64,000 nt of DNA from Shigella phage SHFML-26 (KX130862); one strand, 5' to 3'; numbered from the stretch's first letter, positions 6,246 to 13,193 are shown. Notes: a model not told the origin generated them from the letters alone. Numbers and translations: made by a program.

Positions 6246-6488
6246 TTATTCCTTAATTCCTAATACTTGTTTAAAAGTCTCGTCGTAATCAAGACTTTGG
6301 CCTGTTTGTTCTTTATGTTTGTATATAATATCACTTACTTCTGATAGCATATTTTTATATGAACGAGTTAAAGCAGATTTAAGCACGCTGTATCTATCAG
6401 GAAATTTACCGTGTTCATTATAATAAGCTATTGCTAATTCACGGACTGCCTTTTCAGCAGCCTCCATATATTCTTTACGCTTTGTCAT
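6246..6488 (-). CDS. hypothetical protein (start at internal Met likely)
   Basis: ORF 6246-6629 overlaps the next gene; internal start [13 protein letters not shown] avoids the overlap. Confidence 0.4.
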
Positions 6489-6789
6489 TTTCTTCTCGGT
6501 CAAATCGGTGTTTACAATGGCGACATTTATAACGAAGATTACTAGTCTGCCAATGGACCAATTGCACCTGTTCAGTTCCACATTCAGGGCAATTAGGAAC
6601 GTTTTTAGAAGCACGTTCGCGGCGTTCAACCATGACCATTACAGAATCCCAATTAATAGGGCTGCTATAATCATCACAACCATGAATCTTTCCACGCATT
6701 TCCAAATCGTCTTCTTCACCGGCCATAATAATTTTAATTAAACTGGAATTACTTGAAGCTGCAATGTCTTCTAATAGACGCTTTTTCAT
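6475..6789 (-). CDS. zinc-ribbon protein
   Basis: CPECG...CRHCKH two Cys pairs. Confidence 0.5.
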
Positions 6790-7715
6790 TTCAATACCTC
6801 AATAGCATTACGTAAACCATTTGCTTTTGCATTAAGAGCTTTTAACAATTTGGTGTGTTCTGCAATTTGGGCTTCAACTTCAATCAAACGAGCATTGAGA
6901 TATTCGCGTTCTTCACTCAGATTATCAGCCTTTTCTGCTTTAGGTTCTTTTACAACTTGCTTATATGTATTAGGGTTCTTCAGTTTAATTAGAATGCGTG
7001 AACTGTACAGCATTGAACCATTATCTTCGGTTTCGTCATACATTTCCACTACGTCCATCATCTCCACCATCGTGCAGAGTTTATAAGACAACGAACGAAT
7101 AATTTTGTTGTGCTTATTAATTTCTCTAGCTGTCATGGTGCCGAGATTACGTGAGTAATAATAAGGAACCTGGATATTAATTAATACTGATGAACCACCT
7201 GGCTTGTGTGTTACTTCATCAGCAATAACCCAATCCTTAACATGAACTGTATTTGTACGGTCATCGCCCGCGGTAAATAGTTTACGAGCATGCTTAAAAA
7301 GCATATTCACTTGGTCATTGAATTGACAAGCGAATTTATCAGCAAATTTAGTTTCGGGAATGGTAGATAACCAATCAGCCAAATGGGTCCTTTTAACATC
7401 GTTAACAATAGTAAATTCAACCAAATCGGTTATAGATGTCTCAGATTTAATGAAGCTCGGCTTCATAAAGTTTTTAATGTTATCACTAGCTACAGTAGAA
7501 GATAACAGACGAGAACGTTTAAACCATTGAAGCAAATTGCCTAACGAATGAGAATAAGCGTTCTGAGTATCTTTACAGATATGATTTTCCTGGCCAACAT
7601 ATTGAAGGAAATCACGAAGAATATTATTGATTACTGCCCTGTGTCCTATCTGATAATTACGATGTTTAGTAATAAGACTGTCAAAATAATCAATATAATG
7701 TTTACGAGTTTTCAT
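6786..7715 (-). CDS. hypothetical protein with C-terminal coiled coil (tandem family member 1)
   Basis: 309 aa; N-terminus MKTRKHYIDYF; C-terminal heptad-rich segment. Confidence 0.6.
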   Translation of the reverse strand: MKTRKHYIDYFDSLITKHRNYQIGHRAVINNILRDFLQYVGQENHICKDTQNAYSHSLGNLLQWFKRSRLLSSTVASDNIKNFMKPSFIKSETSITDLVEFTIVNDVKRTHLADWLSTIPETKFADKFACQFNDQVNMLFKHARKLFTAGDDRTNTVHVKDWVIADEVTHKPGGSSVLINIQVPYYYSRNLGTMTAREINKHNKIIRSLSYKLCTMVEMMDVVEMYDETEDNGSMLYSSRILIKLKNPNTYKQVVKEPKAEKADNLSEEREYLNARLIEVEAQIAEHTKLLKALNAKANGLRNAIEVLK

Positions 7716-7767
7716 GTTCTTCTCACTTTGTTAATGGTTTATACTCCGAGCCATCCTTGGCTTTAAA

Positions 7768-8769
7768 TTACTTAATTAACTGTAAAGCTTGTTCAAGACG
7801 ATCCAGGCGATTAACAGATTCTTCCCAAATCCTTTTAGCCTGCTCATATTCTTTCTGTGCTTTATTAGAAATTTCTAGAACTTCTTTATAAGCTTTTTCT
7901 AGTGCAATAACTTCTGGACGAATTTCTATCGGTTCAGGTGAATCGTCAAGACATTCCATTAGTTCCTCAAGGGTAGTTTCTTCTTTAGGAGTATTCACAA
8001 TTTCATCACATTTTTGTTGGTAAATTTCTTTATCAGTCGGTGAGTACGCGCACTTTACTTCACGAAGACTAACTACAATTTTATATCCTTCCCAACCACC
8101 CATATTTTTGAAAGGATATGTATGAATACTTTTTACAGTTTCCATACAATCCAAAGCCGTCTCTAATTGATGAGTTATAGTGCTAGCAATTGAGAAAAAT
8201 TTATTAATATTCTTTTGGTTAGCTTCTGGTGTAAAAAATTCGTAATTCACAAAAATAGCTACTTTATTTTTATCAAGCTCATATTCTTTTACGATAATCA
8301 TATCAGAAGCCAAAGGATGAATTTGACGATAATCGCCATAACATAATTTAGAAGCTGATTTTAGAATTTGTCCTTTAAAAAGTCTGAAATTACTAATCCA
8401 ACGACGAGTAAAAATATTCTTAGGGTCTTCTTTGATATTAAGATGATAAGAATTAACATCACCGAACCAATTGTATCCTATTACACCTTTAGTTCGTTTA
8501 ATTTCTTTCCCAAAATTATCAAGAATATCCCGATTAACCAAATATGAAAGAAGACGAGACCCTTTAAAGGTTTTCTTGATAACATCTTTATCTACACGGC
8601 TAGAAATTTTACGAATTTCATGAATAAATTTAGTAGAAGAAACAATACTTGCATCAATACTACTGAGCCATTGATTGATAATAGAAAGAACAGCGTTCTG
8701 ACTAGACATGGGTTTAACTTTATCATCAATAACCCTATTGAATGATTTGATATATTCGTTACGAGTCAT
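7768..8769 (-). CDS. hypothetical protein with C-terminal coiled coil (tandem family member 2)
   Basis: Start taken at MTRNEYIKSF; C-terminal EKAYKEVLEISNKAQKEYEQAKRIWEESVNRLDRLEQALQLIK. Confidence 0.6.
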   Translation of the reverse strand: MTRNEYIKSFNRVIDDKVKPMSSQNAVLSIINQWLSSIDASIVSSTKFIHEIRKISSRVDKDVIKKTFKGSRLLSYLVNRDILDNFGKEIKRTKGVIGYNWFGDVNSYHLNIKEDPKNIFTRRWISNFRLFKGQILKSASKLCYGDYRQIHPLASDMIIVKEYELDKNKVAIFVNYEFFTPEANQKNINKFFSIASTITHQLETALDCMETVKSIHTYPFKNMGGWEGYKIVVSLREVKCAYSPTDKEIYQQKCDEIVNTPKEETTLEELMECLDDSPEPIEIRPEVIALEKAYKEVLEISNKAQKEYEQAKRIWEESVNRLDRLEQALQLIK

Positions 8770-8826
8770 ATTAATCTCCTCAGTAGAAAGTAAGAACATT
8801 ATACCACATCCTTGTGGAAAAGTAAA

Positions 8827-9849
8827 CTAGTTCAGTGCATTTAGTGCATTGTTCAGTTTAGAACGTTGCTTCGTAAGATTTTTGACTTTTTCTTGAGCTT
8901 TTTCCAGCATCTTTTCAGCTTCTAACACTTCATTAGTTGCTTTAACAAGTTCATCATCTACTGCCTTGATAGACTTCTCAATCGCATCCGCGTGCCATTT
9001 TTCAACAGGTTTAAGACTCGGATTTTCAACAGGAAGAAAATTCACTTTATTAAATTTCCATGCGTCTTTATTACCTGAGCTATACATCCAAAATTTAGGA
9101 TCGTTTGATGAGCAATTAGATAAATTTAAGTTATCTTGCACTTCCTGCTTTTTCTCTTGCGGGACTTCGTCCTTTCTCAAAAAATCGTATTTAAATGAAA
9201 CGATCATATCAAGTTCATATGTTGTTGTATGTTCCCAATTTCGCTCAAAACGAGGTAAAATCTTAGATTGAACAGCAGCAACAACATCCATATACTTAAA
9301 TGCTTCTGTCAGCTGTGATTTAAGACATTCACAAATTGAAAGAGAATTTTTAGTATTAGGCTTAAAGCTAATTCGTGCAGTTCTATTATTTTCTTTTAAT
9401 GGTCTTACTTCCATCTGAAGAGTATAACCATCAAATTTCAGATTCTTTAAGTTAATATCAGAGCCTTTTAATCGACTAGCAGTAGACAAAATTTGCTTTA
9501 ATTGTCTACGGAACAGAGCAATAAATCTCCATTCAATACGATAATGATTTGGATTGAAAAATCCAGATGATAAATCGACCTTACTTTGACCAACGCCTTG
9601 AACAATCAAAGGATTTTTATAATCAATAGTTTTACAGAAATCGGTGAGCTGTTCACGAGCAGTCATTTGCGTAATATACCCTGCTTTACTAAAATTACGC
9701 ACCCATTCGCTGCTATTCAGATATTTAAAGTGATGAATAGCACGATTAACTTTATCAGGGTCTAAATTATTTTCACACAAAAATGTCATAACATCACGAG
9801 TATAGCTGGCATTACGAACCATATCTTCAATTTGAGAACGAGTTTTCAT
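8827..9849 (-). CDS. hypothetical protein with C-terminal coiled coil (tandem family member 3)
   Basis: 340 aa; N-terminus MKTRSQIEDM; C-terminal coiled coil. Confidence 0.6.
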   Translation of the reverse strand: MKTRSQIEDMVRNASYTRDVMTFLCENNLDPDKVNRAIHHFKYLNSSEWVRNFSKAGYITQMTAREQLTDFCKTIDYKNPLIVQGVGQSKVDLSSGFFNPNHYRIEWRFIALFRRQLKQILSTASRLKGSDINLKNLKFDGYTLQMEVRPLKENNRTARISFKPNTKNSLSICECLKSQLTEAFKYMDVVAAVQSKILPRFERNWEHTTTYELDMIVSFKYDFLRKDEVPQEKKQEVQDNLNLSNCSSNDPKFWMYSSGNKDAWKFNKVNFLPVENPSLKPVEKWHADAIEKSIKAVDDELVKATNEVLEAEKMLEKAQEKVKNLTKQRSKLNNALNALN

Positions 9850-9857
9850 AGTGTTCC

Positions 9858-10763
9858 TTAAGATTTAAGTAAATCGACAATTTTAATTAACTTTTCACGC
9901 TCAGATTTAGCTTTACTACTCAGTCCAGATAGTCTGAAAATTTCATCATCATATTGTTGAATAGAAATATTTAGCTCTTCAATCTGCTTATTAAAATAAG
10001 CAATTTGTTCAGAATGTTTTTCATTACTACGAACTGGTACAGGTTTTGTAGGCAATTTAGTTGAACTGGATTCATCTGGGCGATAAATTAAAATACAACT
10101 TGAACCAATCGGACATTTAGCACCAGACACATATTCTAATGTTCCGGCTTCTTTTAAAACTTCAAAAGCTAAACAGAGATGATGCCCCATATTAACATAA
10201 TCAGTAGAGCGAGCTCTGATGTAATAATCATCTCCGCGAATACTAAATTTAAAGCATTTAAGGTCTTCTGTATTATTGGTCTTAAAAATCATTTGTTTAT
10301 CTAGACCTTTAGCTAATCGAGCGCCTAATGCTAATAATCGTCGTTGATTTTCCCACAAATCCGCAATCATTTGATCGAATGACAATTTCGGCATTAGTCT
10401 ACCATAAAGGTCATATCCTTTATTATAATTGCGAAGAATTTCACTCGCGTTAATACGAGACAACGCTCCAATTTTATTAAGGGCTTTCATGATGCGATTA
10501 GATAAACTCATTCCAGACCCGTTTGTTCGCTGTAAATGTTTTTCTAATCCAAATCCAATATCAACTTTAAATTTATCTAAAATTTTGGCATGAACATCTC
10601 TGTCAATAACATTCAAATCCAAAGTTGGGTTAAATCTATGAAAAAATTTATCTGGCTCTCCACGACGAAGTACAGTCCATTCATTCATCATTTTTTTATT
10701 AACTAAAGATTTAATTACTGCATTGACATTATTAATTACTACTGACATATTTTCCTCACTCAA
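9858..10763 (-). CDS. hypothetical protein with C-terminal coiled coil (tandem family member 4)
   Basis: 301 aa; C-terminal coiled coil. Confidence 0.6.
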   Translation of the reverse strand: MSEENMSVVINNVNAVIKSLVNKKMMNEWTVLRRGEPDKFFHRFNPTLDLNVIDRDVHAKILDKFKVDIGFGLEKHLQRTNGSGMSLSNRIMKALNKIGALSRINASEILRNYNKGYDLYGRLMPKLSFDQMIADLWENQRRLLALGARLAKGLDKQMIFKTNNTEDLKCFKFSIRGDDYYIRARSTDYVNMGHHLCLAFEVLKEAGTLEYVSGAKCPIGSSCILIYRPDESSSTKLPTKPVPVRSNEKHSEQIAYFNKQIEELNISIQQYDDEIFRLSGLSSKAKSEREKLIKIVDLLKS

Positions 10764-11164: not shown

Positions 11165-11219
11165 AATAATCTCAATTAAAAGGGCTTAGAACCATTATAC
11201 CATCCTTGGTATAAAGCGG

Positions 11220-12122: not shown

Positions 12123-12212
12123 TTACCAGTTTAATTCTAGTCATCTTTTTAATGGCAGTCCATATAATCTATTTCTGAACTGCCTTTTTGTCTTAGAAGT
12201 CCTCTTATGAAT

Positions 12213-13193
12213 TTATTTCAGAAGAGTAACCTCAGCGATTTCTTCCCAACCGTTTTTGTCGGTCATAATAAAGTCAGCAAGATAAAGAGCAGTACGCAGT
12301 GAAACATTACGTAAACGGTTAACATTGACTTTCATCCATGATAATGCTTTATAAGTTTCTTCATCAGAAAGACCGCGCTTTTGCATCATGTCGGTTGAAA
12401 GAATAACATCTTCAACCCTGACCATAATTTCTTCATTAGTGTGAACACCCAAATCTAAATAAACTGAGCGGGACACTAATGCTTGTAAATGTGGAGCAAG
12501 TTTAGTACCACGGTCTAATTCGCGGTCAATATCAACGTTTGTGATAAAAACAATTGTTCCTTTAAATTCAAACTCACGGTCAATGCCTTTTTCTTCTAAG
12601 TAAGAAGATGCAGTGCTCCAGCAGACTTTACGGGTCTCTCCAGTGTCCAGAGCAGCTTTCAGAAGATTAAGAATGTCCATATCAGAGAAAACATCCACAT
12701 CATCAATCAAAAGGACAGAATTCTCTTCACGATTATTCCAAAGCTGCTCATAAAGACCAATACCAGAGATTTTACCATTAATGCTTTTATATTCAATGTA
12801 TCCAATATCATTTGCTTTATTCAAAGCTTTATCTAAAGAATACGTTTTACCAATACCCGCCGCACCAGAGATAATTAATGAACGAATGTTTCCGTTAATA
12901 ATACCATTCGTCATCATTCCCATAACATTAAATCTTTTATTAATGCGGGTTTTCATATCTTCATACGATTCTTTAACTTCTTCAACTTTTACACCATCAT
13001 ATGAAATGTCTGATTTGTAAACCCAAACACCGCGACGCTTACCGTCAATTTCAACAAAAACTTTACCATCTCCTTGTGCATCTACCGGAGCATTATCTGG
13101 GAACCATTCGCCTAAGAGCTCAAAAGTTCCAGAGATTTCTTTACCGAAGTAGATACCCTTATTGATAGTTACAGTTTTCATTTTATTCTCCAA
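12213..13193 (-). CDS. AAA+/P-loop ATPase
   Basis: Walker A GAAGIGKT and Walker B VLLIDDVD; 326 aa. Confidence 0.7.
   Translation of the reverse strand: MENKMKTVTINKGIYFGKEISGTFELLGEWFPDNAPVDAQGDGKVFVEIDGKRRGVWVYKSDISYDGVKVEEVKESYEDMKTRINKRFNVMGMMTNGIINGNIRSLIISGAAGIGKTYSLDKALNKANDIGYIEYKSINGKISGIGLYEQLWNNREENSVLLIDDVDVFSDMDILNLLKAALDTGETRKVCWSTASSYLEEKGIDREFEFKGTIVFITNVDIDRELDRGTKLAPHLQALVSRSVYLDLGVHTNEEIMVRVEDVILSTDMMQKRGLSDEETYKALSWMKVNVNRLRNVSLRTALYLADFIMTDKNGWEEIAEVTLLK

Follow-up and report, generated by a model that had tools for sequence, protein, structure and literature searches.

The closest described relative of the genes considered here is T4 nrdC.5, an early gene (PMC9391042) whose product belongs to DUF7235 (PF23882). 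A block of infection was traced to Dsr1, a SIR2-domain defence of ECOR17 that T4 nrdC.5 counteracts, and the gene expressed alone restores infection of MG1655 carrying cloned dsr1 (Srikant et al. 2022, PMC9391042). Another phage protein that neutralises a defence-associated sirtuin is DSAD1 of phage SPbeta, which inhibits the SIR2 defence DSR2 by direct binding that occupies the place otherwise taken by the activating tail tube protein (PMC10973363). A 64,000-nucleotide stretch of DNA from Shigella phage SHFML-26 (KX130862), hereafter the window, contains an orthologue of nrdC.5 in a row of four genes, nrdC.3 to nrdC.6. The analysis presented here indicates that the four are very probably remote paralogs with the same architecture, and that counter-defence by non-enzymatic binding is their likeliest role. 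A preliminary description made from the sequence alone had noted four minus-strand genes of similar size, three of them with similar N-termini, and heptad-rich C-termini; it had proposed a diversified paralog family of unknown function that resembles receptor or inhibitor families.

The window is a Tequatrovirus (T4/RB14-like) genome; its 3978-base region with the four genes shares 96.7% identity with phages RB3, RB5, RB6, RB9, RB10 and RB14 and matches 648 phage records. Four consecutive minus-strand open reading frames (ORFs) correspond to nrdC.3, nrdC.4, nrdC.5 and nrdC.6 in the annotation of RB14 and T4, and lie within the coding-strand order nrdC.10, nrdC.9, nrdC.8, nrdC.7, nrdC.6, nrdC.5, nrdC.4, nrdC.3, nrdC.2, nrdC.1, nrdC. 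The ORFs bear out the positions and sizes reported in the preliminary description, with refined starts for nrdC.4 and nrdC.6:

6786-7715, minus strand: nrdC.3, 309 residues; ORF with RB14 annotation, probable paralog of the nrdC.4 type
7768-8769, minus strand: nrdC.4, 333 residues from the ATG at 8769
8827-9849, minus strand: nrdC.5, 340 residues; member of DUF7235 and orthologue of the Dsr1-overcoming T4 gene
9858-10748, minus strand: nrdC.6, 296 residues from the ATG at 10748; most diverged of the probable paralogs

The longest ORF of nrdC.4 spans 7768-8799 (343 residues). Translation most likely begins with the ATG at 8769 (333 residues, MTRNEY...), because this codon is preceded by a GAGGAG ribosome-binding site with a promoter-like site upstream (8826-8798), and because the in-frame ATG at 8799 falls on the -10 box of that promoter-like site; T4 nrdC.4 is annotated with the same start. 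For nrdC.6, the ATG at 10748 (296 residues) is most likely the start rather than the TTG at 10763, which would give an ORF of 301 residues (9858-10763). The annotated nrdC.6 homologue of Shigella phage Sf25, P0121, is 378 residues long, with an N-terminus about 80 residues longer that may stem from fusion to sequence further upstream or from a wrongly assigned start. The three similar N-termini read as originally quoted (MKTRKHYIDYF, MTRNEYIKSF and MKTRSQIEDM), and a 'TR.E' motif is kept by nrdC.5 orthologues of other genera (MKIKTRAEY, MAFITRKEL). NrdC.4 is 91.3% identical to its T4 counterpart, and NrdC.5 is 94.4% identical to T4 NrdC.5, which occupies the equal genomic position. Homologues of nrdC.5 retrieved by word-indexed searches all exceed 80% identity.

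Existing classifications divide the four genes among several families. The PF23882 model matches nrdC.5 with an expectation value (E) of 1.2e-129 and 432.6 bits (cutoff 30), residues 1-340 aligning to model positions 1-307; the Pfam scan gave no match of this model to nrdC.3, nrdC.4 or nrdC.6, and therefore only nrdC.5 is assigned to DUF7235. Both nrdC.3 (E 4e-115) and nrdC.4 (E 6.8e-166) match the whole 334-position profile of phrog_1435, nrdC.5 falls in phrog_2351, and nrdC.6 matches 303/303 profile positions of phrog_2257 (E 2.9e-151). Homologues of nrdC.3 and nrdC.4 bear PF26897, a label taken from the precomputed annotation of those homologues and not from a Pfam scan of the window proteins, and homologues of nrdC.6 bear PF26899. 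Whereas PHROGs and Pfam keep nrdC.5 and nrdC.6 as separate, unlinked families without annotation, they are here joined with nrdC.3, nrdC.4 and single-copy genes of other Straboviridae genera in one superfamily.

Pairwise identity among the four proteins is 15-20%. BLASTP aligns nrdC.3 with nrdC.4 (E 8e-6, 26% identity over 160 residues) and returned nothing significant for the remaining five of the six pairs. Family alignments, built in the first round from database homologues and 14 related viral contigs, were compared using hhalign. The nrdC.3 and nrdC.4 families match with a probability of 97.5% (E 6.5e-12), and those of nrdC.4 and nrdC.5 with 80.7% (E 1.3e-5, 184 columns), a value that drops to 44% (E 2.3e-4) once the coiled coil is removed. 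The nrdC.4 alignment, used as a profile against 1.84 billion representative proteins, produced only seven matches that include nrdC.3, with neither nrdC.5 nor nrdC.6 and nothing beyond T4-like phages among them. The family is visible through profiles and structure only, because direct pairwise similarity is absent in five of the six pairs.

An iterative hidden Markov model (HMM) search was seeded with nrdC.5 and run on 667 ORFs of 46 nrdC.10-anchored loci together with the moha and Acj9 loci. Single-copy proteins of other genera were recruited first. The first nrdC.4 type joined at E 6.8e-6 with an alignment that spans the N-terminal region and the core, and the NrdC.4 of the window scored E 1e-26; the nrdC.3 types came next, with E-values of 1e-9 to 8e-6. 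All nrdC.6-type proteins (14/14) joined in one round (E 7e-13 to 2e-6) with a model that held none of them, and the alignment of the window NrdC.6 comprises residues 7-175, to the exclusion of the coiled coil. The final set contains 72 proteins of 290-390 residues, except for one frameshifted nrdC.4 split in two fragments. All members sit in the same syntenic block, and no obviously unrelated protein is found among them.

Controls for profile drift gave the same grouping. Leave-one-type-out models retrieved the window NrdC.6 at E 1e-8 (31 bits), NrdC.5 at 4.9e-12, NrdC.4 at 3.6e-12 and NrdC.3 at 3e-10, and no reversed-sequence decoy appeared at E 100 or better. An independent comparison of profiles by hhalign reveals an intermediate, X1, a group of single-copy genes from T4-like phages of Enterobacter, Kosakonia, Edwardsiella and Pectobacterium, which matches nrdC.5 with 93% and nrdC.6 with 87% probability, the latter over 228 columns. 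The chain nrdC.6~X1~nrdC.5~nrdC.4~nrdC.3 reads 87, 93, 78 and 97.5%. A helix-pair motif is visible in all four proteins (ARKLFTAGD, ASKLCYGD, ASRLKGSD, ARLAKGLD) and constitutes the most conserved block within the nrdC.4 family and within the nrdC.6 family. On this evidence we regard the descent of nrdC.3 to nrdC.6 from a common superfamily ancestor as highly probable, with somewhat lower confidence for nrdC.6. The diversified paralog family proposed in the preliminary description is thus supported, directly by BLASTP and hhalign for nrdC.3 and nrdC.4 and through intermediate profiles for nrdC.5 and nrdC.6; direct pairwise alignment did not extend the relationship to the other five pairs. Similarity was found in sequence for nrdC.3 and nrdC.4, in profiles for all four, and in the structural matches shared by the NrdC.4 and NrdC.6 models.

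AlphaFold models cover NrdC.4 (predicted local distance difference test, pLDDT, 81.5; predicted template modelling score, pTM, 0.66) and NrdC.6 (pLDDT 77, pTM 0.65), and were compared through the order of their elements and their shared Foldseek targets. The order is equal in both and comprises N-terminal helices, a helix pair, a beta-hairpin, a long helix, a second beta-hairpin, a linker and a terminal helix, the linker being of low confidence. The sequence alignment puts the two helix pairs in register (residues 119-142 in nrdC.4 and 124-145 in nrdC.6). A Foldseek search of BFVD revealed five full-length matches common to both models with a probability of 1.00, namely Straboviridae proteins of about 310-335 residues from IME523, PM2, fHyAci03, Acj9 and fHe-Yen9-01, of which the IME523 and PM2 proteins are X1 members. 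In Acj61, the NrdC.4 and NrdC.6 models match adjacent genes. The two predicted models agree with the proposed paralogy. PDB sequence searches with all four proteins gave no meaningful match; in structural comparison with the PDB, the best matches to the alpha/beta core of the NrdC.4 model have the tail terminator / tail completion fold (lambda gpU-like), and the alignments span about 90-120 residues.

All four proteins appear to share one architecture: helices at the N-terminus are followed by an alpha/beta core, then by a flexible linker that retains a conserved proline, and finally by a heptad helix of some 50 residues at the C-terminus. The C-terminal segments were assessed with a crude heptad score compared with 300 shuffles per protein, and with the AlphaFold models:

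6789-6926, minus strand: NrdC.3 C-terminal heptad (coiled-coil-like) segment, residues 264-309; score reached by 1/300 shuffles
7771-7917, minus strand: NrdC.4 C-terminal long helix, residues 285-333; AlphaFold
8830-9000, minus strand: NrdC.5 C-terminal heptad segment, residues 284-340; score exceeded by 0/300 shuffles
9861-10022, minus strand: NrdC.6 C-terminal helices, residues 243-296; heptad score and AlphaFold helices

In NrdC.6 the score of residues 243-276 is exceeded by 0/300 shuffles, and for nrdC.4 the score is not significant against its 300 shuffles. AlphaFold predicts a free-standing helix at residues 285-332 of NrdC.4 and two helices at 246-272 and 278-295 of NrdC.6. When hydropathy is averaged over the 72 members, the last 49 columns of the alignment show a power of 53 at a period of 3.5 residues, compared with 16 at 3.6 and at most 9 at the other periods tried. 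A sharp 3.5 period across 72 members implies that the heptad pattern is family-wide and beyond chance, and the peak is the signature of a coiled coil and not of a generic amphipathic helix. The heptad-rich C-termini noted earlier thus hold for the family as a whole, with the shuffle test significant for three of the four window proteins.

Copy-number variation across T4-like genomes, a comparison proposed in the preliminary description, is evident, with four, three, two or one copies according to genus. The numbers are lower bounds at the sensitivity of the HMM search:

Tequatrovirus: nrdC.6, nrdC.5, nrdC.4, nrdC.3; at least 4 copies
Dhakavirus/Gaprivervirus-like phages: nrdC.6, a 71-residue membrane ORF, nrdC.5, nrdC.4, without nrdC.3; at least 3 copies
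Mosigvirus (moha): nrdC.6, a 66-residue membrane ORF, nrdC.5, a nrdC.3-type gene, without nrdC.4; at least 3 copies
Acj61 and a related Acinetobacter phage: at least 2 adjacent copies
Many other genera: at least 1 copy
Aeromonas phage loci: none found at HMM sensitivity

The superfamily is confined to Straboviridae. The neighbouring NrdC.10 is 63% identical between the window and Acinetobacter phage Acj9, whereas the Acj9 family member, Acj9p122, is found by the 72-member family model at only E 7.5e-4. The profiles of the individual families gave nothing significant against the Acj9 candidate proteins and left Acj9p122 undetected; besides the larger superfamily model, it is linked by Foldseek and by an hhalign match of 97.5% to group X5. 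In a Klebsiella-phage-like contig (locus L046), a 313-residue ORF at 8961-9902, immediately upstream of nrdC.10, matches the superfamily models at E 5e-8 to 6e-7, and family members may therefore occur outside the usual position. In non-Tequatrovirus relatives, a gene for a predicted membrane protein of 66-71 residues lies between nrdC.6 and nrdC.5 (loci L006-L015, about 8840-9070; L017, 7897-8097). The corresponding gap in the window is only 8 bases, and a 134-residue membrane protein, nrdC.7, is encoded upstream of nrdC.6 instead.

The proteins of the block evolve faster than those of neighbouring genes. Within Tequatrovirus, the ratio of nonsynonymous to synonymous substitution rates (dN/dS) is 0.1-0.3 for nrdC.3, nrdC.4 and nrdC.5, and at most 0.09 for nrdC, nrdC.1 and nrdC.8 to nrdC.10. 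The nrdC.3 gene is dimorphic in this genus (window, 6786-7715; L064, 5934-6860; L017, 9191-10141): the NrdC.3 described here is 60.8% identical to that of T4 and 77% identical to moha_91 of Mosigvirus, the T4 and Mosigvirus proteins share 57%, and the genes flanking nrdC.3 are at least 90% identical to T4-type phages. This pattern of identities suggests an exchange of nrdC.3 alleles between genera. A chimeric protein in a 167-kb contig, P0056, joins residues 146-272 of NrdC.5 to NrdC.3 from about residue 136 to its end. The junction lies in a short 'VN(F/M)L' microhomology, and the deletion removes nrdC.4 and parts of both neighbours. In a Tequatrovirus genome of 169,650 bp, nrdC.4 is split in two ORFs of 193 and 158 residues (L021, 14394-15426, on the same contig as L008, 9971-11003), apparently a frameshift pseudogene.

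Three intergenic elements in or next to the block resemble PeSL cassettes (promoter-early stem-loop plus ORFan), which mediate modular shuffling in the hyperplastic regions of T4-like phages (Arbiol et al. 2010, PMC2839356):

7716-7767, minus strand: PeSL-like element between nrdC.4 and nrdC.3; TTTAAA, stem-loop GCCAAGGATGGC, TATAAA
8770-8826, minus strand: PeSL-like putative early promoter between nrdC.5 and nrdC.4; TTTACT, stem-loop CCACAAGGATGTGG, TGGTATAAT, GAGGAG ribosome-binding site
11165-11219, minus strand: PeSL-like putative promoter upstream of nrdC.7; TTTATA, ACCAAGGATGGT, TATAAT

The layout common to the three is a -35 box, a short stem-loop CCA(C)AAGGAT(G)TGG and TATAAT/TATAAA. 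The promoter scan scored the site upstream of nrdC.4 (8826-8798) with 10/12 matches and an extended -10, and the exact 10-mer CCAAGGATGG occurs twice in the window compared with 0.03 occurrences expected. Both elements flanking nrdC.4 are conserved in T4. Like the described cassettes (PMC2839356), they bracket a gene, nrdC.4, with short promoter/stem-loop intergenic elements, which is one of the described layouts, and the presence of the nrdC.3 and nrdC.4 types differs between genera; the stem found here is short (4-5 bp, loop AGGA) and differs from the described GGGG...CCCC type. The hallmark of a PeSL, an intergenic sigma-70-type early promoter with a stem-loop flanking a variable ORF, is predicted for nrdC.4. 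Both nrdC.4 and nrdC.3 appear to possess their own sigma-70-type early promoters fused to stem-loops, and these elements may have provided a route for gain and loss of the two genes. The nrdC.7 gene overlaps nrdC.6, which is separated from nrdC.5 by 8 nt; the promoter at 11165-11219 probably drives the tightly packed nrdC.7-nrdC.6-nrdC.5 as a putative single transcription unit.

The function of the genes had been listed as unknown in the preliminary description, a statement that does not hold for nrdC.5 with its published anti-Dsr1 phenotype; the likeness to inhibitor families suggested at the same time fits T4 nrdC.5, the one member with a published function (PMC9391042). All of nrdC.3-nrdC.6 are non-essential in T4 by transposon sequencing, and nrdC.1-6 are deletable together as a block. 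The neighbouring genes include published counter-defence genes, nrdC.1 against Septu and gp49.2 against OLD, and the neighbourhood also holds pin, a Lon inhibitor. Pfam, NCBIfam and PADLOC scans detected no enzyme signature or meaningful domain match; a permissive scan of 19 nrdC.4 homologues gave chance-level matches only (XerD N-terminus, Vat(E), BrxC coiled coil, DUF3905). Conservation across the superfamily falls almost entirely on hydrophobic columns, an argument against a common catalytic site, and an enzymatic role such as NAD+ regeneration was rejected since no conserved polar motif is found across the family.

We therefore consider, with moderate confidence, that the four genes form a tandem array of paralogs that diverged long ago and whose role is most likely counter-defence by non-enzymatic binding. 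By analogy with NrdC.5, the products of nrdC.3, nrdC.4 and nrdC.6 would also inhibit defences, and the inhibition would proceed through direct binding. Every paralog would disable its own target among the immunity proteins of the host and owe its specificity to the fast-evolving surfaces of the N-terminal region and the core. The conserved C-terminal coiled coil, which most likely drives oligomerisation, would assemble the oligomer, and duplication together with allele exchange would diversify the targets. The target of NrdC.5 would be Dsr1, and the blocking of DSR2 at its trigger site by DSAD1 serves as the working model for the proposed mechanism, although no sequence or fold similarity of the window proteins to DSAD1 was found.

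A number of observations weigh against this interpretation. The functional evidence concerns one of the four genes and one complementation experiment on the T4 orthologue, and the portion of the HIDEN-SEQ comparison that was accessible flagged none of nrdC.3 to nrdC.6. Each of the four genes has an overall dN/dS below 1, and the value for nrdC.6 within Tequatrovirus (0.04-0.15) is less typical of an arms-race gene. As to the paralogy, BLASTP of nrdC.6 against nrdC.3, nrdC.4 and nrdC.5 is not significant, and when its family is compared directly with each of the other three, hhalign gives probabilities of at most 1%, both with and without the coiled coil. The recruits of round 1 in the iterative search aligned through the coiled-coil region alone, a known route of profile drift, for which reason the controls described above were run, and the E-values of that search refer to a small targeted database. 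The membership of nrdC.6 rests on intermediates, two predicted models and an indirect structural comparison.

The alternative that survives best accepts the family and assigns it a general role other than counter-defence. Its members would act in early host takeover or as accessory factors, perhaps by binding RNA polymerase, nucleoid proteins or metabolic proteins of the host, and the effect of NrdC.5 on Dsr1 would be indirect. Many early non-essential T4 proteins act on host machinery, and purifying selection prevails in the four genes (dN/dS <0.31), both of which are consistent with such a role; the effect of NrdC.5 on Dsr1 is, moreover, known from infection rescue (PMC9391042). The rescue, however, is obtained with nrdC.5 alone and specifically on cells with cloned dsr1, the flanking nrdC.1 and gp49.2 are defence inhibitors, and host-range genes typically differ in copy number between lineages, have dimorphic alleles and decay to pseudogenes, as is seen here. 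We hold a host-takeover role to be possible but rather doubtful.

A more specific, and unlikely, variant of counter-defence draws on the structural match of the NrdC.4 core. If the core has a tail-terminator-like fold, the proteins might be early mimics of late virion proteins that act as decoys on sensor domains such as that of Dsr1. The sensors would then be filled ahead of the synthesis of the genuine structural trigger, as DSAD1 does with DSR2 by mimicking the tail tube protein. Different paralogs would be adapted to different sensors, and the conserved C-terminal coiled coil would fit the targets' own oligomeric state or allow mixed oligomers of the paralogs.

It is also conceivable, though quite unlikely, that nrdC.3, nrdC.4 and perhaps nrdC.5 are true paralogs and that nrdC.6 is unrelated, its likeness in size, position and C-terminal coiled coil arising by convergence or profile drift. 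The negative direct comparisons of nrdC.6 given above agree with this, as do the failure of the nrdC.4 alignment to retrieve nrdC.5 or nrdC.6 from the large database and the weak Foldseek match (E 0.2) of the NrdC.6 model to the nrdC.5-type protein of vB_EcoM_005. Against it, the model built without nrdC.6 types finds NrdC.6 through non-coiled-coil residues with zero decoys, X1 bridges the gap in the profile comparison, the order of secondary structure is that of NrdC.4 with the helix pairs in register, and the five full-length Foldseek matches are common to both proteins. Finally, a part in virion structure or assembly, for instance as relatives of tail terminator or tail completion proteins, is so improbable that the reading was rejected, the fold match of the NrdC.4 core notwithstanding: all four genes are non-essential and the block is deletable, nrdC.5 is described as an early gene, and the block lies in the early region on the early-transcribed strand with early-type promoters.

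Several features of the neighbourhood were recorded in addition. The nrdC.2 gene (window, 6475-6789) encodes a small zinc-ribbon protein (CxxC...CxxC) and is the most variable gene of the neighbourhood, with 54-75% identity to other Tequatrovirus copies and a length of 104 residues here compared with 129 in others, the difference lying at the C-terminus. At 12123-12212 the window has a 90-base gap at the place where RB14 and locus L003 have a gene for a seg-like homing endonuclease (nrdC.9/nrdC.10). The nrdC.10 gene (window, 12213-13193), which served as the synteny anchor, encodes an AAA/STAND-like P-loop protein whose conservation is unusual in this region, with 98-99% identity within Tequatrovirus. 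In Acj9 (locus L016, 4691-7345), a nicotinamide phosphoribosyltransferase gene adjoins a ribose-phosphate pyrophosphokinase gene. Such a pair has been described as an NAD+ reconstitution pathway that counters NAD-depleting defences; none was found in the region of the window examined.

The genes themselves are long-annotated T4 ORFs and the nrdC.5 phenotype is published. The literature search on nrdC.3, nrdC.4, nrdC.6, DUF7235 and the PHROG and Pfam accessions found nothing on function or paralogy, nor on the superfamily link drawn here among PF23882, PF26897, PF26899 and the single-copy genes of other genera. The outcome is unsurprising to a specialist, yet it gives specific testable candidates. 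T4 is the best-studied lytic phage, and yet nrdC.3, nrdC.4 and nrdC.6, large genes that amount to about 3 kb of coding sequence, lack an assigned function, and nrdC.5 has a phenotype only. The link connects three families of unknown function with unannotated genes of Enterobacter, Klebsiella, Pectobacterium and Acinetobacter phages, and may help to predict which hosts therapeutic T4-like phages can infect. The series of one to four copies, the dimorphic alleles, the fusions and the pseudogenes could be used for mapping target-specificity surfaces. With one member that disarms a SIR2 NADase defence, the superfamily makes its three orphans candidate inhibitors of other defences.

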